From NCBI GenBank assembly GCA_000004695.1, contig CM000152.2, forward strand, positions 1,504,001 through 1,568,000: a DNA stretch of 64,000 bases, written 5' to 3'. The DNA is from Dictyostelium discoideum. Its lineage: Eukaryota. Below the pieces are notes generated by a model. The model ran no database searches. It saw only the letters and a program-made list of their open reading frames with translations, and was not told the DNA's origin. Positions 24,782-64,000 of the stretch are shown here, piece after piece. The position numbers and the translations under genes are program-made. Numbering within the stretch: the stretch's first letter is position 1; each line of letters opens with the position of its first letter.

Positions 24782-25247
24782 TTTATTATACCAGTTGGAA
24801 ATATAATTGAAATAAAAAATAAAAAAAAATAAAAAAAATAAAAAAACAATCGTTTTTTTTTTTTTTTTTGTTGTATTTTTTTTTTTTTTTTTTTAATTTT
24901 TAATTTTATTTTTTTTTAAAAAAAAAAAAAACAGGAAAAAGGATTTGGTTTTTATTTGAAAATTAGTAAACAGGTTTTTTTTTTTTTTAATATCTGGCAA
25001 TTCTAATTTTTTGGAGGTTATTAAAATTTATAACCCGATTTTTTAATTTTGCCTAAAAATAAATAAAAAAAAACATAAATACTTTCATAATATCTATTAA
25101 TATATCATCATAATTTTTATTTTTATTTTTTTTTTTTTATTTTTTATTTTTTATTTTTTTTGGTTTAATATTTTTTTTTTTTACGTGCAAATTTTTTGAA
25201 AATTACATGTTTCATTAAGTTAAATTGAATGCATTATTATTTTTCGA

Positions 25248-27167
25248 TTAATTAGTGAGAACGGTACCTTTTTTAATTTCACCCTATTTATAAAAATAAA
25301 AATAAAAAAAGATTGTTGATTAGTTTATGAACAATAATAATAAAATTTTTTTTTTTTTTTTAAAAAAAAAAAAAACATACCCAACCAATAAGTCTCCAAT
25401 TTTTATCGACTCTTCTTGATAAAGCGATTTTTTCACCTTCTTGAGAACAAACTGGAGTTAAAAGTTGAAGTTTAGCTAAATCATGTTTAACAGCGACGAC
25501 ACGACAACCAGTACTAGTTGAACCAATGTTAACCATAAGGGTATCTTCTTTGGATAATTTTTTAACTTTACTTTGTTTATCACCATCGGATTTAACACCT
25601 AAAAGTCTACGTAAGAGGAAAAAGTTAACTTCGAGAGCGACGAAAATTTCTGGTAATTTACCGACTGAACCTAAAACTTGACCAACCAAACGATCAGCTC
25701 TGCAAAGGGTTGGATCGATCTTTGTACCAACACCAATTAAACCACCTGGTACAGCGTATTGAAGTTCATTCTCTTCAGCAAAGAGAGAGATAATTCTACA
25801 GAAGATTGGGGAACATTTGATTTTACCATCCAATTCCTTACTGATAACACCTGGACGAACTTCGATTTCATCGCCAATCTTTAATACACCCTTCAAGATT
25901 GAACCACCAGCAACACCACCTTTAATTTCATCAACACGAGAACCTGGTTTATTGACATCGAATGAACGAATAACGATCATACGTGGATCTGATGTAAAAT
26001 CTCTAACTGGGATTGGAATCTTTTTAACAATGTATTCACAAATGACATCGATATTGTATTTCATTTGAGCAGAGATTGGAATGATTGGTGCATTCTCTGC
26101 GATTGTACCTTGAATGAATTTCAAAATTTGACCATATTGTTCTTGTGCTGCTGCTTCCTTTACCAAATCAATCTTATTTTGAAGAATGATAATATTTTTA
26201 AGATTCATAATTTCAATAGCTGCAATGTGTTCACTAGTTTGTGGTTGTGGACATGATTCATTACCTGCAATCAATAAAAGAGCTGCATCCATAACTGCTG
26301 CACCATTTAACATAGTTGCCATTAAAACATCATGACCTAAAAAAATTTATAAAAAAATAAAATAATAAAAATAAAATTATTTAAAAAATGAATATCAAGT
26401 TTTTGTTTGTTTAACCAATTCATTGAAAATAAAAATAAATAAAAAAAAGGTGGTTAATATTTAATTGAGTGACTAAAAAAAACATACCTGGACAATCTAC
26501 AAAAGAAACATGACGTAAGAGAGTCATTCTACCACCACAACCTGGTCTTTCACATTGTGGATTATCTTCAGTATTTGAACGTGCTGATTTGTAACAACCT
26601 GGTCTTTCACATTGTGGGTTATCACATTTATAAATCTTTGCATTTGCATAACCTAATTTAATTGTAATATTACGTTTGAATTCTGATGTAAATCTAACTG
26701 TCTATTGATTGGGTTTTGAATTTTATTTGAATAATATTAAATTAACAATCATTATCATCATCGTCATAATCATAATCATTTTTACCATAACCATCATTAT
26801 TATTATTACCAATATTGTTGTAAATAATATCAATACCATCACCATTATTAAAACCAATTATCATTATTTTGAAAGTAATAAATTAAAAATTAAAAAAAAA
26901 AGAGAAAAAAATGGTTAGTAAAAGTTGGGTGTGTGATAAAATTTTTAATTTTTTATTTCCAATTTTCTTAAAAAATTAACAAAGACATACCAAAACACCA
27001 GAGATTGCTTTAACTACAGTACTTTTACCATGAGCTACATGACCAATGGTACCAATATTAATTGTTGCTTGTCTACTAATAACATTTGGTGTTAATGGGG
27101 TCAATTCATTGACATTCAATAACTTTACATCTTGAACTGATAAATTTGGTTTATTTTTAGTTGCCAT
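25248..27167 (-). CDS. Translation initiation factor eIF2 gamma subunit (EIF2S3/GCD11 family GTPase). Four exons on the minus strand: 27167..26991, 26701..26488, 26336..25381, 25283..25248.
   Basis: The G1 motif '[22 protein letters not shown]' is present. '[48 protein letters not shown]' is present, and the protein matches human eIF2-gamma almost residue for residue down to 'RLIGW|[11 protein letters not shown]'. Minus-strand donors are GTATGT (three times); acceptors are AG. Phases 0/1/0 are consistent. Total 1383 nt = 460 aa. Confidence 0.85.
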
Positions 27168-27369
27168 CTTTAATTTCTATTTAAATTTTAAATACAAAAT
27201 CTATTAAGTGTTTTTATTATCAAAAATTTAAATATCTAGTTTTATATTATTCTTTGTAAATTGTATAAATTTATTTATTTATTTATTTATAAAGATAAGT
27301 GATGTTTTGGAAAAAAAAAAAAAAAAATTTTAAAAAAAAAAAAAAAAATTAAAAATGAAAAAAAATTGA

Positions 27370-27406
<37 letters not shown>

Positions 27407-27740
27407 GGTTAGAAATTCATCATTTGTGCTTCGTTTTTTTTTTATTTTTATTTTTATTTTTTATTAATTTATTTTTTTTTTTTTGGTTTATTTTTAACTT
27501 TTAAAATTGGGAAATAAATATTATTTTGTATTTTTATAAGAATATTGTTTTTTTTTTTTTAACAATTTTATTCCTTATTAAATTTCAATATTGGTTTTTT
27601 TTTTTTTTTTTTTTTTTATTGGAAAAAAATTGGTTTTTGGAAAATATAGATTTACATCCATAATATCAAAAATCGATATTTTTAGTTAAAAAAAAAAAAG
27701 TATTTTGTGTGTTTTTTTTTTTTTTTTTTTTTATTTATTT

Positions 27741-27791
27741 AGTGGTCATATGTTATAAAATAAAAAAAATTATTTAAATCATATGACCACT
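27741..27791. other. Perfect 12-bp inverted repeat (hairpin candidate) 'agtggtcatatg'(27 bp)'catatgaccact' in the eIF2-gamma upstream intergenic region.
   Basis: Read directly from the sequence. The GC-containing stem carries NdeI-like CATATG cores. The loop is AT-rich and partly symmetric. Confidence 0.8.
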
Positions 27792-28027
27792 TAAAAAAAT
27801 AGTCTAAATGTGTATTAGTGATATAAGTAGATTATTTTAAAAAGTTTCTTTTCTCGTTTATAAATATGAAAATTTGATTTAATAAAAAATAAAGAAAAAT
27901 AATAAATTTTTTTAGGTGGAGATTTCGATTTTAGTTTTAAAATATATTTGGATTGCAAATAATTTTTTTGAGATTTTGGAGGGTGGTTTAATTTTTATCT
28001 AATTGGAAAAAAAAGGTTAATTAAAAT

Positions 28028-28058
<31 letters not shown>

Positions 28059-28239
28059 ATTTTTTTTTTTATTATTTCTATTTATAATATATAATATATA
28101 AAAAAAAAAAAAAAAAAAATTTTTTTTTATTATAATCCCTTAATCTAAAATAAAAAAATTAATACAAGCTCAACACCCAATTATTTAAATACCCTTGAAA
28201 CTAAATATGTTTATGAAAATTTAATGGAATTATTTAGAG

Positions 28240-28551
28240 TTGTATGAAGTTGGTGGACAAATAATGAAAGAGAATGCAATGGATGAAGCTTTTGCCAATA
28301 AAGAAGGTAATCATTCTCGATTGGCTTTGAAAACATTTGGACAATTGGGTCGCTATAATATTGAACACTATGAAAGATGTCAATCTACTATTTCAAGAGT
28401 TTATAAATATGTTAATAAGGAAAATATTAATGTTTTATATTCATTTCTAATTTGTTGTGAATTATCAGCTTATGCATTCCATGAAAAAAGCTATGGAAGA
28501 ATTTGGTGTAAAGGATCTTTTTTATTTCCATGTCCATTTAACTGCCGATAA
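28240..28551 (+). CDS. Orphan Cys-rich ORF of about 95-103 aa; no recognisable family. May be spurious or a degenerate gene fragment.
   Basis: The ORF reads 'MKENAMDEAFANKEGNHSRLALKTFGQLGRYNIEHYERC...CKGSFLFPCPFNCR' and has relatively high GC. It is flanked by inverted repeats (27741-27791; 28528-28569 overlapping its stop; 28708-28875). Confidence 0.2.
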   Translation: MYEVGGQIMKENAMDEAFANKEGNHSRLALKTFGQLGRYNIEHYERCQSTISRVYKYVNKENINVLYSFLICCELSAYAFHEKSYGRIWCKGSFLFPCPFNCR

Positions 28552-28569
28552 TCATGATGATGGACATGG
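28528..28569. other. Perfect 10-bp inverted repeat 'ccatgtccat'(22 bp)'atggacatgg' overlapping the stop codon of the orphan ORF.
   Basis: Read directly from the sequence. Confidence 0.8.
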
Positions 28570-28705
28570 TGTGAAAATGTTAAAAAATGACCATAGAAGA
28601 GTTTAATTTAGGAATTCAATTATATTTAACTTTTTTTTTTTTCAGATATTTTTGATAATTAAAAAATAATTTCAATTGAAAAACAATAAGAAATTCATTT
28701 ATTTT

Positions 28706-28876
28706 CTTATGCTTGGATCCTAAAAAAAAAAAAAAAAAAAATTTATAAAATGTGTTACTTTTATTTTTTTAAACTTTAAGAAAAAATTAAAAAAAGTATT
28801 TCATTTTATTTTTATCTTTACTTTTATTTTTTTATTTATTTTTCATCTTTTTTTTTTTTAGGATCCAAGCATAAAA
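28706..28876. repeat. Foldback or MITE-like element candidate, about 170 bp. Its ~26-bp perfect terminal inverted repeats 'ttatgcttggatcctaaaaaaaaaaa' / 'tttttttttttaggatccaagcataa' flank an AT-rich core.
   Basis: Read directly from the sequence: the left arm is 28708-28733 and the right arm is 28850-28875. Each arm contains a BamHI GGATCC site. Confidence 0.6.
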
Positions 28877-29204
28877 ATTTTTAAACATTTTTTTTCCAAT
28901 TAAATATTAAATTTGATTTACCTTTATAGAACATTGTCTTTTGATAAAAATGGAGTTTATTTTTAAATCCTAATTTTTCCTAAATATTTTAAATGAATTT
29001 GTAAAAGGTTAGTTAATATTTTAGAAAATAATATTTGGGGTGATCTATCGAATAATTTTTTTAATTGGATTGTGTGATGTGTGTGAGTTAGTTATATTTT
29101 ATAATTCTGGGGTATTATAAGATTTTCAATTTAGTTTTTTTTAATTTTTTTTTTTATTAAAATTTTTTTTTTGAAAATATACATACCGATTGAATATTAA
29201 TACA

Positions 29205-29817
29205 ATGTTTTATCATTTATTTTATTTTTTTATTTTTATTAATAATTTCTTTGTTTATTGATTTTGTTTGTATATAAATTTTTCAAAATATTTTTTTTTT
29301 AATATAAAATATAAAAAAAAAAAAAAAAAAAATTATTAACATTATTATTTTATATTATATTTAGATAAAAAAAAATCTAAAGAAAAGTAATAATGATCCA
29401 CCTGGGCCCATTAGTTTGCCATTATTAGGAAATCTTCATAACCTCACAAAAAACCCACATAGAGGTCTTAAAAATCTTTCTGATAAATATGGTGGGATTT
29501 TTAGATGTTATCTTGGTGATCATTACAGTATTGTAGTAAGTGATCCTGTGATAATTAATGAAATTTATATTAAAAAATTTGAAAAGGTTTGTACAAGACC
29601 CAATAATGATACATTTAAAATGTTTTCAAGTGGTTTTAAAGATCTTGCATTTTCAGATAATTATAATATTTGGAGTAAAATTAGAACAATAGTTAATTCA
29701 AATTTTACAAAAACAAAATTAACAAAAACCATTTACAATTATTTAGAAGATCAAACTAATCAATTAATTGAAAATATGGGAAATTATTCAAAATCTGGTG
29801 AACCTGTATGTAAAATA

Positions 29818-29855
<38 letters not shown>

Positions 29856-30917
29856 TTTAATACAATTTTAATTTAATTATTATTATTATTATTAGTTTTA
29901 TCCACAATTACAATATATATGAAAATTTCATTAAATGTAATATGTAAATTATTTTTTTCAAAAGAAATTTTACAAAATGAAAGTTTTGATAATGGGAAAA
30001 TGAGAAGAATTGCAGTACCTATTCAAATAGTTTGTAAAGAGTTGGGAGCAGGTAATTTGGTGATTTTGTGGGTATTTTATCACCTTTACTTTATTTTACA
30101 AAGAAAAAGTATCAAAAAAACAGTTCAACATCAACAGATTTCATAGGTGAAATTAATGATGAACATTTAAAAAATTTAGATCATGATTAAAATTATTTTA
30201 TTAACCTAAATAATAAAAAAAAAAACAATAATAAAGTCCAAAAGATTTAATGGATATGTTAATTATAGATTCAACAAAAGGTAAGGATGAAGATAAAGAA
30301 CCTATTGTTCATATTGGATATGATTTTTTAATGGTGGATCAGATTCGTCATCTGGTATTATGGAATGGTTCACACTTTTCATGATTAATAATAAAGATTG
30401 TCAAGAAAAAGCATACAATGAAATTGTTTCAGTAATGGGTGAAGATTGTAATAAAATTAGTTATGCTGATCGTCCAAAACTTCCATATTTAGTTGCATGT
30501 ATAAATGAATGTTTAAGAATGAGAACTGAAGATCCATTAGGTATACCAAGAGGAGCAGTTGAAGATATTGAAATCAATGGTTATTTCATGCCAAAAGGTG
30601 CAAAAGTTCATCATTATCTTTATGCATTTGGTATGAATGAAACTGTTTTTGAAAATGTAAATAAATTTCAACCAGATAGATGGTTAACAAATGATCAAGT
30701 TCATTTAAAACAAATGTTAAATCATCTCGTTCCATTCTCAGTTGGTCCTAGAAGTTGTTTTGGTAAAAATTTATCAGAATTAGAAGTATTTGTAGTTTGT
30801 TCAAATATTCTATTAAACTTTGAATTATCATCATACAATGGTAAACCGGTTGATGATTTTGAAATATTTGGAATCCATCCACCTGAATTCCCAGTTAAAT
30901 TAATTAAAAGAAAATAA
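29205..30917 (+). pseudogene. Cytochrome P450 family gene. The reading frame is disrupted at three or more places, so it is probably a pseudogene, unless these are homopolymer sequencing errors.
   Basis: The N-terminus 'IKKNLKKSNNDPPGPISLPLLGNLHNL' is a membrane-anchor/PPGP hinge (exon from the acceptor at 29363-64 to about 29809). 'ISLNVICKLFF' is an SRS1-like region. A 'DFIGEI' region lies in frame 2. The I-helix 'YDF(F)NGGSDSSSGIMEWF' can be read only if a seventh T is added to the T6 run at 30324-30329. The intact C-terminus (30360-30917) carries EXXR 'ECLRMR' and the heme loop 'FSVGPRSCFG'. The breaks are a frame 0->2 switch near 30053-30058 and an in-frame TAA plus a GT-less 45-bp AT stretch at 30188-30237 between 'LDHD' and 'SPKDLMDML'. 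Confidence 0.55.
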
Positions 30918-30983
30918 AATATTTTTTTTTTATTTTTTTTTTTATTATTAAATATATTTTTATTAATTTTATTATTATTATTA

Positions 30984-31596
30984 TTAATTTTTAAAAGTTT
31001 TAAAATCTAAATTATCCCAATTTAAATTAATACCATTTTTAATAGAATCAATATGTTTTAATACAGTTGCTTTATAAAAATATAAATGTTCATATAATTC
31101 AAAGAATGAAACACAGGAATATAGTGAATATAATTGTAAATTTGTATCTTTTTCATCTAATGCTTCTTTTAGCATTAATAAACCTTCTTCTAAATGATTA
31201 TGAGTTTCACGATATATCAATTTCAATTCATTGAATTTTTTAGTTTGTTTACAATATTTTATATAGTAATCTAATGAATCATAATTATTTTTTAAAATTT
31301 GAATGAAAACTTTCCAAGATAAAGTATTCTTTAAAAATGTTATAACTCTTAATAAAACCAATTCATTATAATCTAATTGATAAACTCTAACTGCTTCATC
31401 TAATAATTGATTCTTTTCTTGAATTGATTTCTTTCTCTCTATACCACTTGGTTCAATACCATTTTTAATTCTCCAAATAATTGTTACAATTGAAAAATCT
31501 TTTTGATCTCTAATTTCTTTATTTAAATCTTTAATCTATTAAAATAAAATGAAAATAATAATAATAAATAAATTAATATTTAAATAATATAAAATA

Positions 31597-31657
<61 letters not shown>

Positions 31658-33005
31658 TAAAACTTACTTGTAAATCCAAATCTTTTGTTAAAATTTTATA
31701 ATCTTTTAATTGTAAATTTAATCTTGAATTTTTTTCATCCAATTTTGAAAGTTGTTCTTGTGATTGTTCATAAAGTGATTGAAAACTATCTTTTTGTTCA
31801 CCAACACCTGATAAAAGTTCATACAGATTATCTATTTTTCTATGATGATTAACTAAAAGTTCAGCAGAGTTCATTAATTGAGTTCTTAATGATTCAGACC
31901 ATTGATCCAATTGATTATTATAAAGTTCCAACTCTTCTATATTTGATTTCAAATTTATAGTTTGTTCCCATTGATCGGCATTATCATTTAATACTATATT
32001 CAATTGTCTTTTTAATTCACTATTTTCACTCTTTAAATGATCTAAAAATAATCTACATGCCATTGGTATATCTAAATTTGCAAATGAAAATGAATCAATA
32101 TCTCCACCAAATGTTTGTTCATTAATTTGTTGTTGAATTGGTATATTATTATTATTATTTAAAATTTGTTGTTGTTGTTGTTGTTGTTGTTGTTTGTTAT
32201 TATTTACAGGTTGATTATTAATATTACTACTATTATTATTAGTATTTATATTGTTATTATTATTATTATTAGTAGTATTTGTATTATTAGTATTATTTAT
32301 AATTTGTTGTGTTTGTATTGGTAATTGTGATATATTAGTTGTTGTTGAAGTTGAGATGGTTGAAGTTGAAGTTATTGTTGTTGAAGTTTGTGGTGTTAAT
32401 GCAGATATTGGTGTTGATGGATCAATATAGAGATTAGCATTAACACCACTATTCTTGTTTGAATGAAATGATTGTTGTTTATTTAATTTTGGTATTTCTT
32501 TTTTAATTGGTTTATTTAATACAGATAATTGAGGTTCAATTGAACCTAGATAATGATCATCTCCACCTAATAATTCTTTATTTACAATAATTGTTGAATC
32601 TTTATAGGTTAACATCTTTTCTGAATCATCTAAATCACCACCATTGGTCATACCACCAGCTGTACCACCACCAAAATCATCTAAGTTGGTTGAGAAATCA
32701 CTCTGTCTATTTATATTGTTGGTTTCAATATTTAATTGAAATTGACCAAGTAAATTAGTTGATGCTGATGTTGTTAATGTACCACCTTTACTTGGTGTTT
32801 GTTGTTGTTGTTGCTGTGTACTACCACCACCACCACCACCACCACCAACTTTTATAGGTGTATTTTGATTATTACTACCATTGGGTGTTGGTGTACTACT
32901 ACCATTAAATGTTGATCTTTTTGTTGGAGTTTTATTGGGTGTAAGCTTTTCAAGAAAAGAATCAAATATACCTTTACTTGGTGTTGTTGATTTTACGTTT
33001 GACAT
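30984..33005 (-). CDS. Hypothetical coiled-coil protein with an N/Q/T-rich N-terminal half and a conserved-looking helical C-terminal domain. Exons on the minus strand: 33005..31668 and 31535..30984.
   Basis: Exon 1 is 1338 nt and ends '...KDLDLQ' at a GTAAGT donor. The 132-bp intron contains (ATT)n and ends in TTTTAATAG. Exon 2 reads 'IKDLNKEIRDQK...RVITFLKNTLSWKVFIQILKNNYDSLDYYIKYCKQ...'. The whole exon 2 is 552 nt and in frame. Coiled-coil heptads run through 'LKSENSELKRQLNIVL...LSKLDEKNSRLNLQLKDYK'. Confidence 0.6.
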
Positions 33006-34570
33006 TTTTTATTTAATTTTTTTATTATTTTTTTATTTTTTTATTTTTTTATTTTTTAAATATAAAAATAAAATATGTATAAAAAATAAAAAAATAAAAT
33101 AAAATAAAATTGTTGTGTATAAAGTAAAAAAAAAAAAAAAATGATTGATGATGTGTTTGCCCCCAATAAAATTTTTTATTTTTTTAAAAAAAAATTAATG
33201 TTGTATAAAATTTTTACTCGAATATTTAAACACAACCACTTTTTTTTTTTTTTTATTTTTTTCAGAAAATATCTATTTTATTTTTTTTTTTTTTAAAATT
33301 TTTTATTTTTTTTATTTTTTTTTCCCGATTTCTTGCGATTATTATTTTTTAAGTTATTATTATTTGTTTTCCTTGAAATATTAATATGAATTGATCTTTT
33401 TACAATATCAAAATTTAAAAATGATCACAAATCAAAGAAATAACAAATCAAATAAAAAGGAAAAAAAAATTTTATTTATTTTTTTATTTTTATTTTTATT
33501 TTTTTTCATATTATTCCTTTAAAAATTAAATTTAATTTTTGATGTTCGATCTTTTGTTTTAAATTTTTTTTTTTATCTTTTTTTTATTTCTATTTTTTTA
33601 TTTTTTTTTTTTATTTTTATTTATTTTTTTTACCACACGTCATATTTTTTTAAAAGGAAATGTGTCTTGCATATGTTTTGAAATTGACAGTAGTGGTTAA
33701 GATTTTTTTTTTTTATTTTTATTTTTTATTTTATTTTATTATTTTTTTAAAAAATAAAATTAAATTAAAAATAAATTAAATTAAATAGATTTAAATTACT
33801 ATTTTTTAGTTTCATAAATAATATTTTTTAGGTTTATAGTTTTTTTTTTTTTTATTTTATTTTTTTTTTTTTTTTTTTTTTTTTTTTCCTTCATTATAAT
33901 TAGTATTATAACTAAAACTAATTTAAATAGTATTGATTATTTTAACTATTTTAATTTTTTTTTTTTTTTTTTTTTATACAATTTTTTTTATTCTATTTTA
34001 ATATCGTAATTATTAATATTATTAATATTAAAAAAATAAAAAAAAATAAAATAATAATTTTATTATTATCGTATTAATAGTAATTAAATATTTCCCATTA
34101 AAATCAACAAAATCAATATTTACTTTTTTTTTTTTTTTTTTTTTATTATTTTTTTTTAAAAAATTATCTTTTAAATAAACAATATTATAGTAATAAATAT
34201 ATCTGCTAAATTATAATTTTGCTAATTAAAATATTATTTAAATTTTATTTATTTATTTATTTCAAATCCATATTTAATTAATAAAATAATAATTTTAAAA
34301 AAAATAAAATAAAATAAAATAATTACCTTATTAATTATTAACAGTAATCAGTATTTCTTTTAAAATTATTTGTTATTTCCATTTTAAAAATTATTTATTA
34401 TTTTATTATTTATTTTCTTATTTCCTATAGAAAAAAAAAAAAAAATAATATTTTTTTTTTTTATTCCTAAACACTTTTATTTATATTATTATTATTTTTT
34501 TTTTTTTTTTTAATGTAGAAACAATAATAATTTTAAACAATTAAAAAATATATATAATTTAATATCAAAA

Positions 34571-34870
34571 ATGCAATCTTCAAATCCATTTGAAAATAGT
34601 GGTAGTTCTGGTGGTGGAGAAGGGAGTGAAGATACTAAAGATGATTTTGTACTATTAAAAAAAGATGAAGACCCAACAATTCAAAGTACTTTAATAAAAA
34701 GATTGGATTCAATTCAACAACAGGATCATTTAAAAAAGAAACAAGATTTAGATACAAAAAGTAATGAAAGTAGTTCAATATGTGGTGCTTCTCCATTTGA
34801 AGTTTCAAAAGAGGATCATAGTAATTTAAAATCTGCAAATGATTTAAAACAAAAAGAAAATCAAAAATTA

Positions 34871-34963
<93 letters not shown>

Positions 34964-35094
34964 GAACAACAACAAGAACAAGAACAATTTGGACAACAAT
35001 CAACCAATGAAACAATATCTTTACCATTTTCAAATAATAATGAATCAATTGTAAATTTAAATAATCAACAACAACAATCAACAGAAATAATAAA

Positions 35095-35126
<32 letters not shown>

Positions 35127-35599
35127 ACCAATTTGTATCAGTTCCATTTAGTCCACCATTAAAACCATTTTCATTAGAAAAAATAGAATCAAATTCAGAG
35201 TTACCATTTATTAGACCAGATAATTATGAAAGTACAAATTATCCTCATAATACAACAACCAACTCAAATAGTGGTATTTTAAATCCAGGAATTGATAGAG
35301 CATACTATAATATGAATTCAAGGATTGGTAGTAACATTCCATTAGATGATGATAATGCAAATCCATTCGCTCGTATTACCACAGCTGTTGACCCAGAAGT
35401 CGAAGTTAACAATGATGATGATGAAGCTGGTCCAATGGTTAATATAAATATCAATCCTGGTACTTTTGCAGAACCAAACGGTGCAGAAGTTCCTGTAGTA
35501 ACAAGAAGAAGAAGAACCGATGATAAAATAGGTGTCATTATAATGTGTACTATAATTATAATTATTATTGGTGGTTGTATTGCATTTTTATTCATTTAA
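34571..35599 (+). CDS. Hypothetical tail-anchored membrane protein with NPF motifs and a poly-Gln tract.
   Basis: 342-aa single ORF. 'SNPFEN' and 'ANPFARI' are EH-domain-ligand-like motifs. (CAA)n encodes Q30. The C-terminal 'IGVIIMCTIIIIIIGGCIAFLFI' is a single TM segment at the extreme C-terminus. Confidence 0.5.
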
Positions 35600-35736
35600 A
35601 TGTAATTTAAAAAAAAAAAAAAAAAAAAAACAAATTTAAAAATAAAAATTAAAAATAAAATAATAATTTCTTTTAAAGTAAAAAAAAAATAATAATACAA
35701 TAAGAATTTTTATTTAAAAATTTTTATTTTATTTAT

Positions 35737-36123
35737 TTATTTTTTAATTGCATGAAGTAAATAATTAACATTTAAATCATTTGTAAAATCCCATTCACAA
35801 GTTAATGGATTATAAACTAAACCTTTAAGATCAGTGATTTGACAATTATTTGAATCAAAATAAGATTCTAAATCCTTTGGTTTTATAAATTGATCCCAAT
35901 GATGTGTTCCAACTGGTACCATTCTAAAAATATATTCAGCACCTAAAATCGCAGAGATATATGATAAAAATGTTTTATTAATTGTTGATATAAATATACT
36001 ACCACCTGGTTTAACTATTTTACTTAAATAATCTATAAATTGTTTTGGATTATCAACATGTTCAATCACTTCTAATGAACAAACTGCATCAAATTGTTGA
36101 TCATTTTCAATATTATAAAAATT

Positions 36124-36171
<48 letters not shown>

Positions 36172-36795
36172 TATATTAATATATTTAATTATTTAATTAT
36201 TTTATTATTTATATTTACCAATTGTTGATTCTAAATAATTTAAAGATTTATTTTGAATATTTTCATTTAATTTTTGATCGAATGATGCATGTGAAATTGC
36301 CATTAAAATATTATTTTTAGCAGCATCTAAACCAACGACTTTAGAAGCACCTAATCTACTTAATGATTCTGTTAATAATCCAACACCACAACCAACATCA
36401 ATTACATTTAAACCTTCTAATGGTAAATGAATTGGATTTTTTGAAACTTTTTCATTATAAATCTTTAATCTATCACAAATATATTTAACTCTAAATGGAT
36501 TCATTCTATGTAATGGTTTCATTGTTCCTTCTGGATTCCACCAATCTGAAGATTGTTGATTAAAAAAATCAATTTCATCTTGTCTTAATGTTGTTGTTGT
36601 TGTTGTAGTGGTATTATTACTATTATTATTACTATTGGATGTTGTTGTAAAATATTTATTACTAATAAATTTACTACTACCACTACTACTACTACTACTA
36701 TATATAATTGATTGTTTTTGTGATTTTATTAAATTATTTATTAAATTTGGTTTATTTAATCTTTGACAAGATTTGCTAATTAAATGATAAATCAT
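35737..36795 (-). CDS. coq3: Ubiquinone biosynthesis O-methyltransferase COQ3/UbiG (SAM-dependent). Exons on the minus strand: 36795..36219 and 36125..35737.
   Basis: 'DWWNPEGTMKPLHRMNPFRVKYI', 'GLNVIDVGCGVGLLTESLSRLGASKVVGLDAAKNNI' (SAM motif I) and 'FDAVCSLEVIEHVDNPKQF...LSKIVKPGGSIFISTINKT' all fit COQ3/UbiG. The 93-bp intron (minus-strand donor GTAAAT, acceptor TTTAG) contains an (AT)n run and is phase 1. Confidence 0.8.
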
Positions 36796-37077
36796 TGTTT
36801 TTTTTTTTTTTATTTTTTTTTTTTTTTATTTTATCTTTTTTCGAGTTGATAGGAGTAATTTGACAATAAAATATTTTTTTATTTCATTTTTTTTTTTTTT
36901 TTTTTTTTTTTTTCATTTTTATTTTTTAATTTTTTTTTTTTTTTTTCATTTTTATTTTTTTTTGAAATTTTTTTTTTTTTTTTTTAAAAGGTTGTTGTTC
37001 ATATTTCACGGTGAGGCGATAGGAAAGGGTAAAAAAAAAATAAAAATAAAAATAGAAATAAAAAAAAAAATAAAAAA

Positions 37078-37766
37078 ATGAAAATCAGAGAAATTATACC
37101 ATTATTAAGTTCAAATCCTCTCTTTTCAAAAACACCACAATCATCACAAAAACCATCATCATTCACAAGTGAAAATAATGAATTATCATTCACAGCAAAA
37201 AATTTTTTATCAGTAAATAATCAATCATCAGAAATTTATTATTATTCACCAATTGAATGTAAATTATATGTAATTAAAGTAGAATCAACTTTAGATAATA
37301 CAATTTGTGCAATTAGATTTCAGGTAAATATTATAATTATTATCATAATTTATTATTATTATTATTATAATTTATTAATAATTAATTAATTAATTACTTA
37401 ATTAAATTAATAATAATAGGAATTAAAATTAAAAATCAATTTTGAAGTTTATAAAATTGAATTGAATGAAGATTCTAGATATCTTTGTATTTCAGGACAT
37501 GTAAATTGTATAATTGTTGATTTAAATCCTCAAACTGTAAATTCATATTTCACAAGTCAAGAGATTTTCTCTGATCAAGAGAATAAAACCTTTGGTTATG
37601 ATTCATTAACAGTTAGAAGTTTTACATTAGATAAAACTTTTTATCAATCTCAAATTTCAAATATAATTAAACAAGTTGAATGGCATCCATTAAGTAATAT
37701 TCATTTAGTAATTTTATATTCAAATAATACTTTAAAGTAAGTGTGTTTGTTTGTTTTTGTTTTTTG

Positions 37767-37797
<31 letters not shown>

Positions 37798-38534
37798 TAT
37801 AAATTATGTATATATATGTTCATTTTTAATTTCTAATTTTTTATTTTTTACTTTTATTAGAATTTATAATATTCAAAGTGGAAATGAAGAAATTGAACAG
37901 ACATTTAATTTAGAATCAATTCATACATTTGAATCATTAAAGAATTTAAAGAATAATGATATTAGAAATCAAACAAAGAATACCAAGAAATTCATTTCAT
38001 TTTGTTTTGGTTCAAATATTAATTTTTGGACAAGATTCACAATATTTTTATTAAGTGATTCTGGCGAAATCTTTAATCTTTGTCCAGTAATTCCAAATAA
38101 TTGTTTAGTTGAAACTAGTTTTTATAGGGATTTTCAAAATCATATTTTATATGAAAAAAATCAAATTGAAAATAATAGCGGTAGTGGTAGTAGTAATGGA
38201 GATGATAGCGATGAATTTATAAAACAACAACAACAACAAAAAAAATATTATGATTTTCAATTTAAATGGTTAATGGCAGCATCAATTAATACAATACCAT
38301 TTGAGATTGAAAATGTAAGTTGGTTAAAATTATCATCACCATCAAATAGTAGTACTACTTTTAATCCACTACTTCAAGGTCCAATTTCAAGGATATCAGA
38401 TTCATTACCACCATCATCAAATAGAGTACCTCTTAAAATTTTATCAATTCAACCATTAGTTTCAAATATAGATCAAAATTCAAATTCTTCAATTATAAAT
38501 AAAATTAATAATAATAATAATAATGATGACGATG

Positions 38535-38605
<71 letters not shown>

Positions 38606-38794
38606 GATGATGAAAAAAAGAAACATAATTTATCATTATCATCAACAAATAAATTAATACCATTTGTAATTATAGTTTTAATGGAATCTTGTGAAAGTTT
38701 AGTAAATATTTGTTGTCAGGATACTATTCCAATGTGGTCAAATGATAATGGTATTTTATATTTAGAGGAAAATAATAGTAATAGTAATAGTAAA

Positions 38795-38827
<33 letters not shown>

Positions 38828-39112
38828 CCAAAATATATAGATTTGATACTATATGAAATTTTAGATTTAAATGTAAAGAAATCAATTAAACCATCATTTA
38901 GTAATATTGATAAAAATTTAAAGAATAAATCAACAATTGCAATTGCAAGCACAAATCAAACTAAAGATTATTTATCATATTCATTACCAACAATGAAATA
39001 TGATCAATGGAGTGATAGTTTATATTTTTATCATAATCAAGGTGTTCAAATAGCTAAATTCCCATGGTTATATCAAATTTATTTAGAAATTAATAATATT
39101 GTAGCTTTTGAA

Positions 39113-50714: not shown

Positions 50715-53635
<2,921 letters not shown>

Positions 53636-55804: not shown

Positions 55805-59341
<3,537 letters not shown>

Positions 59342-62939: not shown

Positions 62940-63066
<127 letters not shown>

Positions 63067-63099
63067 TTATTGTTTTTATTATTATTATAATTATATTTA

Positions 63100-64000
63100 C
63101 TAAGAAAAAAAAAAAATTTGGGTTTATTCTATTTAAATTATAAAAATGTATATTACTTGTTTTGGTCCTTTAATAAATAAGAGTTTTTTAAATTAATATT
63201 TTTTTATATATTTAATAGATTTTGGATGTCATTTTTTTTATTTTTTATACATTTTTTATTTTCTTTTTGGGTTAAGGTGTATAATTATTAAGTGGGGTTA
63301 TAGTTTGTTGTTGTGGTTTTGGGCCTTTAAACATTCTATTACCACTATTTCCTTGAAAATTATTATTATTATTGTTATTTTTAAGGTATTATTCTTTTTT
63401 AATTTAAATTATCGGATAGAATTTTAATTTAATTAAAATATAAAATTGTTATCATAATTATTAATTTTTATTAAGATATTGCTGTTGGAATGGTACTACG
63501 AAGGAGTCAGATGATGATTAATTAAATGAATTGGTAGAAGGAGATATTTTTGTCCTGATTTTGAAAATTTATAACAAAATGATTTCGTTAATTATTTGCC
63601 GATTTTTTTTTTTATTTTTAGAGTAATAATTATTATTCTAGAATAGCTAGTTTGTAACGCTTGTTGGTTAGCTTCGAGTATGAGAGTTTTTCATCTATGT
63701 TCGGTTCGTCGCTATACAGTTGATTGCATATCCAAACCTAAATTTTATGCAATATTAACGCTTTTATTTTTCTATATGCTGAATGTTCTGGATAAGTCAT
63801 AGTTTACACATTTATATCCCCATTCGAAGTATTCTTTATGGAATCTAAGGTTTGCGTAATCTATGTTAATTTCATGATCCATCTTCATGTTTGGAGGCAT
63901 TATTGTTTTAATTGTGTTGGTGGTTTTATTGTTGGATCTAGTTATTTGGTGTTTTCAATTTTTTCTGCGGCATGTGGTAATGTATATAAAGTTTTTCAAA
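63100..64000. other. Compositionally distinct non-coding segment: higher GC, G/T-rich words, few homopolymers, and no ORF of 60 aa or more in any frame. It is a candidate transposon/LTR fragment or ncRNA locus and continues past the window end.
   Basis: Words such as 'ggttaaggtgtataattattaagtggggttatagtttgttgttgtggttttgggcc', 'gcttcgagtatgagag' and 'gttcggttcgtcgctatacag' contrast with the 85-90% AT intergenic DNA elsewhere in the window. Confidence 0.3.

Follow-up and report, generated by a model that had tools for sequence, protein, structure and literature searches.

The 64,000-nucleotide stretch of Dictyostelium discoideum DNA analysed here (the window) contains, at positions 29205-30917 of the plus strand, a full-length cytochrome P450 that cannot be read as a single open reading frame, and this raises the question of whether a living gene is concealed there by faulty sequence or by unusual processing, or whether the gene is dead. 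A first-pass annotation made from the letters alone favoured a pseudogene of fairly recent origin. We consider it highly probable that the locus is a unitary, unprocessed P450 pseudogene lying in place on chromosome 3 of the AX4-type genome, and that it is CYP519H1P (DDB_G0279031). The first-pass proposal of a fairly recent pseudogene is now supported by the lesions, a second assembly, a search for splicing solutions, the substitution pattern and a published listing.

The pieces of the P450 are spread over three frames. When the five frame pieces were conceptually joined, the product matched the Pfam profile PF00067 over profile positions 1-458 of 462 (287 bits, E 2.7e-85), and membership of this family is indicated by the full-length profile match together with the haem-thiolate loop and the ExxR motif. 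All diagnostic elements named in the first-pass annotation were found where it had placed them, each on the plus strand: the PPGP hinge in exon 2 (29398-29409), 'NVICKLFF' in frame 0 (around 29940), 'DFIGEI' in frame 2 (around 30137) and, in exon 4, the I-helix GGSDSS (30333-30350), the K-helix ExxR, present as ECLR (30507-30518), and the haem loop FSVGPRSCFG (30735-30764), an instance of the haem-thiolate signature FxxGxRxCxG. The residue following the haem-loop cysteine is F in the window and I in all orthologs. The claim that the C-terminal 185 codons are intact was likewise confirmed by an open reading frame from ATG to stop at 30360-30917 (+). The I-helix motif (A/G)Gx(D/E)T(T/S), in contrast, is not in frame with the rest, as a 1-nt deletion at 30332/30333 parts GGSDSS from DFL. 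By tblastn no second P450 that could represent a tandem paralog was found in the window, and a tRNA scan returned no tRNA genes there.

Intact counterparts of the gene were found at five loci (L001-L005) from the D. discoideum complex and D. firmibasis, namely ACTFIR_008145, ACTFIW_006438, ACTFIY_005579, ACTFIZ_007302 and RB653_004354, all with uninterrupted open reading frames of 488-492 aa. In the protein search the joined P450 was 91% identical to ACTFIR_008145, which is filed under 'D. discoideum' and falls in a 90% cluster also containing ACTFIW_006438 and ACTFIY_005579; identity was 83% to ACTFIZ_007302, 74% to the D. firmibasis protein and 53% to DICPUDRAFT_84371 of D. purpureum. The coding sequence is 81-95.5% identical to those of the five orthologs at the nucleotide level. 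L001 is collinear with window positions 19888-41072 at approximately 80-93% DNA identity, and we therefore regard L001-L005 as true orthologs in sister lineages. Gene structure is common to all five, with exons of 57 (54 in L003), 441, 293 and 679-688 nt and introns of phases 0, 0 and 2; in the window, introns 1 and 2, as well as the surviving 3' part of intron 3, sit at the conserved positions. The locus thus shares with its five intact orthologs both synteny and the three intron positions and phases.

Two side observations concern these alignments. The 'Dictyostelium discoideum' assemblies ACTFIR and ACTFIW (L001 and L004) are only about 80-93% identical to the AX4-type window across the syntenic block, with 94.5-95.5% in the P450 coding sequence. 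In our judgement this divergence seems far above what is expected within a species, and the two may thus represent cryptic sibling species. In addition, many short stretches dispersed over the window (approximately 52710-52860, 56970-57220, 58465-58627, 62940-63102 and others) match one another and L001 at 85-95%; these may be simple-sequence or low-complexity repeats, for instance trinucleotide tracts of the kind typical of Dictyostelium.

By alignment to L001-L005 we identified six lesions specific to the window, and not one of the five orthologs carries any of them. The first-pass annotation had described three breaks, all of which are real; their positions differ once the orthologs are aligned, and it had overlooked three further lesions: a gain of 4 nt in exon 1, an AT insertion at 29913-29920 and a 6-nt deletion at 30871/30872. 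The ancestral gene comprised four exons (57, 441, 293 and 688 nt) and three introns (phases 0, 0 and 2), encoding a predicted membrane-anchored P450 of about 492 aa; it is still intact in five close relatives, and the six indels were gained on the lineage to the AX4-type genome. The exon 1 remnant (29205-29265, +), which corresponds to the signal-anchor helix, measures 61 nt compared with 57 in the orthologs; owing to this net gain of 4 nt the ATG at 29205 no longer shares a frame with the end of the exon, and a TGA lies in the ATG frame at 29259-29261. Intron 1 (29266-29364, +; phase 0, GTTTGT...TTTAG) is intact at its conserved position, exon 2 (29365-29805, +) is free of lesions with the 441 nt seen in all orthologs, and intron 2 (29806-29895, +; phase 0, GTATGT...ATTAG) is also intact. 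Within intron 2, an (AT)15 microsatellite at 29822-29851 is expanded in comparison with approximately (AT)4 in the ACTFIR ortholog.

The exon 3 remnant (29896-30185, +) is 290 nt long instead of 293, having gained 2 nt, lost 1 nt and lost 4 nt at its end. The insertion at 29913-29920 (+) gives (AT)4, compared with (AT)3 in four of the five orthologs, and brings a TGA into frame at 29920-29922; it arose through slippage of an AT unit, a change of the same kind as in the intron 2 repeat 60 nt upstream. The single-nucleotide loss, of an A at 30060/30061 (+), leaves GGTGA in place of GGATGA (GGACGA in L003), which is not a homopolymer, and across this point the orthologs read GAGNLDDFVG. The break reported between 'KELGAG' and FGDFVG is this deletion, a real frameshift that had been misplaced to 30053-30058. 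A genuine short intron beginning with GTAATT and ending in AG at 30053 was considered and rejected, as that segment encodes the conserved DDFVGxLSPLLYF and shares approximately 95% identity with the coding sequence of the orthologs.

The third break had been described as a spacer of 45 bp with stop codons and no GT donor. The absence of a donor and the presence of stops hold, whereas its length is 51 nt (30186-30236, +) and it represents the 3' part of the phase-2 intron 3, which measures 86-131 nt in the orthologs. Missing are the GTAAAT donor, the 5' part of the intron and the last four bases of exon 3, that is at least 55 nt, through one deletion that took the 3' end of the exon together with the donor. 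There is no GT dinucleotide between 30148 and 30235, and the remnant has stops in all frames. Since it is an intron remnant devoid of its donor, the spacer resembles an intron without GT.

Exon 4 (30237-30917, +), with the TAA stop at 30915-30917, comprises 681 nt compared with 688, owing to losses of 1 and 6 nt. The former removed an A at 30332/30333 (+), immediately before the I-helix and just ahead of its GG: the window reads AATGG, three orthologs AATAGG and the other two ATTAGG and ATTGGG, with DFLIGGSDSS as the uninterrupted ortholog reading. The first-pass annotation held that the I-helix would be restored if the run of six T at 30324-30329 were seven; this fails, because four of the five orthologs have T6 here too and the fifth carries a T-to-C substitution within the run, so that T6 is ancestral. 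The true lesion lies 3 nt downstream of the run, where the sequence is not repetitive. At 30871/30872 (+), an in-frame deletion of 6 nt eliminated two residues of the motif G(I/V)TIHP, which is kept in all orthologs including that of D. purpureum, and falls in the C-terminal sheet of the protein.

Is there a second copy in the same genome that could have taken over? The protein search returned no AX4 protein with more than 40% identity to the joined P450, a result to be read with the word-indexed nature of the search in mind, as a paralog at 40-50% could escape it. For the comparison with paralogous P450s that the first-pass annotation had proposed, the closest intact AX4 P450 among the proteins returned was CYP508B1 (Q54SK0, 484 aa), the representative of whose cluster is 37% identical. 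CYP508B1 resembles the locus in its P450 fold, its similar length and its position on the same chromosome-sized contig, but it is a paralog of a different CYP family. Because it is such a distant paralog and not a back-up copy, the pseudogene is unitary. This fits with the ancestral syntenic position, the retained introns, lesions confined to the window and the lack of any close intact AX4 paralog among the proteins returned, the combination characteristic of a unitary, unprocessed pseudogene.

The time of decay was approached through the substitutions. Identities between the coding sequences give the tree (((AX4,(ACTFIW,ACTFIR)),ACTFIY),ACTFIZ),firmibasis, along which changes were polarised by parsimony, leaving out the first six codons, which could not be aligned. 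The AX4 branch carries 18 nonsynonymous and 11 synonymous changes (omega approximately 0.40), compared with omega of 0.07-0.48 on the functional branches. Neutrality along the entire branch is rejected (p=0.016), and its counts do not differ significantly from those of the functional branches (Fisher p=0.42), both results being based on small counts, with low power. As substitutions stayed below the neutral expectation, the P450 was constrained for most of the AX4 branch. With a background omega of approximately 0.22, it would have evolved neutrally over approximately the final quarter of the branch, a very rough figure given the small counts. We thus infer, in rough terms, that decay is recent and occupies about the last quarter of the time that has passed since this lineage and that of ACTFIR/ACTFIW parted. 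The dN/dS value, a calculation already suggested by the first-pass annotation, therefore fits recent decay, with the reservation that counts are small and power is low.

An omega below one could also be expected if the dead P450 locus were still transcribed, yielding either a truncated product encoded by the open C-terminal frame of 185-197 codons or a non-coding RNA that has some residual role. The open frame at 30324-30917, with an ATG at 30360, would offer such a product. Nevertheless, recent death explains the overall omega equally well, and the changes on the AX4 branch within the C-terminal segment (five nonsynonymous, four synonymous) reveal no special constraint. The P450 fold needs the I-helix and the N-terminal half, so that a C-terminal fragment lacking both could not form it. 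We consider a residual role of this kind very unlikely.

Still less likely is that the gene is intact and that errors of sequencing or assembly, miscounted homopolymers for example, produced its breaks, the alternative put forward in the first-pass annotation. The concern is understandable for a genome of this composition, as the window has a GC content of approximately 21% and long A/T runs are plentiful. The DDB_G0279033 locus of the independent assembly GCA_054883475.1 (L006) aligns to window positions 24978-39029 at 99.7%. Between 27713 and 33859 the two are base-for-base identical (100%), all lesions included; outside this interval they differ by nine SNPs and in the length of six long intergenic A/T runs, so that the assemblies do disagree on long homopolymers elsewhere. 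The run differences, at window positions 27311, 27712, 33860, 36128, 36887 and 37767, are always 2-7 nt longer in the window, and five of the nine SNPs are clustered within 72 nt (36789-36860). These discrepancies are likely to stem from the different ways in which sequencing technologies call homopolymers and from a single patch that is variable or prone to error. As the second assembly is identical across the gene, the lesions are not assembly errors. The nature of the lesions argues in the same direction: the 1-nt deletions lie in GGATGA and AATAGG and not in runs, the T6 run is the ancestral state, and the remaining changes include a multi-base deletion removing a splice donor, the gain of a 2-nt repeat unit and the loss of 6 nt. 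Moreover, pseudogene status is recorded in the published annotation (PMC6524965). A faulty sequence is in our opinion extremely improbable.

Equally hard to sustain is a functional gene in which non-canonical introns, ribosomal frameshifting or editing remove the breaks. Some points speak for it. A cryptic phase-0 donor, GTTTAT at 29253, could in principle bypass the exon 1 shift, use of GTAAAA at 29810 combined with the +2 insertion would give a net +6, and one automated pipeline produced a 484-aa model. By dynamic programming, every combination of GT-AG introns 40-500 nt long was considered between the start of exon 2 and the stop codon, and the longest path without a stop was kept. This path retained 1284 nt and avoided the +2 insertion via GTAAAA at 29810, but it skipped or misread the F-G region (approximately 45 residues) and the whole core of the I-helix. 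No path among all the GT-AG introns of 40-500 nt searched had the I-helix in frame. The observation of the first-pass annotation that the pieces cannot be joined into one open reading frame by canonical introns was thus borne out, with three frames and no GT-AG rescue. Furthermore, the would-be introns are homologous to exons, at approximately 95% to the orthologs, and the conserved GITIHP motif would remain two residues short. Recoding would have to occur three times independently in one mRNA, for which to our knowledge there is no precedent in Dictyostelium.

The automated annotation of GCA_054883475.1 has at this place one 484-aa PF00067 gene (L006 8089-10742, minus strand, approximately window 28264-30917). 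The locus is thus taken for a gene by at least one pipeline, which is a counterpoint to the pseudogene reading; the model, however, starts within a dead gene upstream and spans the 3' part of that haem-oxygenase-like pseudogene as well as the P450 pseudogene. In view of the lesions, this fused model is almost certainly a chimeric artefact. We regard rescue by unusual processing as barely credible. A ciliate-type code with TAA and TAG as sense codons, considered on account of the AT-richness, was rejected, since the organism is Dictyostelium, the orthologs share the TAA stop and the breaks consist of frameshifts.

The pseudogene reading accounts for the locus as follows. The two single-nucleotide deletions and the loss of the intron 3 donor could, by our search, be bypassed with GT-AG introns only by destroying the F-G region and the oxygen-activating I-helix. 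One spliced open reading frame from ATG to stop, as a functional gene would have, is thus not available, with six lesions of which three have no bypass, and because of these three the locus would be unable to make a working monooxygenase.

This genuine, recently decayed, unitary P450 pseudogene has very probably been catalogued before. The open reading frame directly downstream on the opposite strand (31539-33002) was identified by homology search as DDB_G0279033 of D. discoideum AX4 (100% identity). Chen et al. (2019, eLife, PMC6524965, Supplementary file 2) entered CYP519H1P, equal to DDB_G0279031, as a pseudogene in D. discoideum, and named DICPUDRAFT_84371 of D. purpureum 'CYP519H1P_Dp, full length' (Supplementary file 4); the CYP519 name used here for the locus is taken from that work. 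In both the catalogue entry and our locus we see the same region (next to DDB_G0279033), the same D. purpureum ortholog (DICPUDRAFT_84371) and the same pseudogene status, and no difference between the two can be demonstrated. The locus is thus very probably the catalogued CYP519H1P, an equation made on three indirect grounds: the number of the adjacent gene, a D. purpureum ortholog common to both and the lack of an AX4 protein. The main texts of the literature yielded no mention of DDB_G0279031, CYP519H1P or DDB_G0279029, the information residing solely in the supplement. The lesion-by-lesion anatomy and the intact orthologs from newer assemblies are absent from PMC6524965.

The P450 is not the only dead gene here. 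Adjacent to it upstream, at 28158-28662 on the same strand, lies a second pseudogene, of a Haem_oxygenas_2-like gene (PF14518), in which the ATG is changed to ATT and which carries indels of -95, -3, -5, -23 and +4 nt. At L001-L005 its counterpart is an intact single-exon gene of 207-208 aa, which precedes the P450 by 531-670 nt and has the same orientation. The match to the Haem_oxygenas_2 / iron-containing redox enzyme family (PF14518) is weak (E 2.6e-7 to 1.5e-5), with one of the three tested proteins above the gathering score. On the AX4 branch this gene shows 14 nonsynonymous and 5 synonymous changes over 501 nt, a per-site divergence approximately double that of the P450 and nearer to neutrality. 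The search hits included no protein from AX4 or D. citrinum, whether for this gene or for the P450.

The two enzymes may once have made up an oxidative module, which could have served to make a secondary metabolite, for instance, and the AX4/NC4 lineage may have lost both as a unit. We put this forward tentatively and hold it to be rather unlikely, because the haem-oxygenase-like gene is not beside the P450 in D. purpureum and the search with the haem-oxygenase-like protein returned proteins of D. dimigraforme and P. violaceum, from neither of which a close homologue of the P450 was returned. Deep conservation of the gene pair is likewise not supported, given the lack of adjacency in D. purpureum. 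If the module loss were true, AX4 would be a natural double knock-out to compare with its sibling lineages.

As one of the 13 pseudogenes or partial genes listed among the 54 CYP loci of D. discoideum, of which 41 are full-length (PMC6524965), the locus carries little weight for biology at large. The lesion map has practical value for annotation, as it exposes the 484-aa 'P450' model as an artefact, and the intact sibling orthologs show the form of the ancestral gene. Together with the co-decayed neighbour, these orthologs point towards a small loss of oxidative metabolism confined to this lineage, which a comparison of AX4 with the sibling strains could examine.
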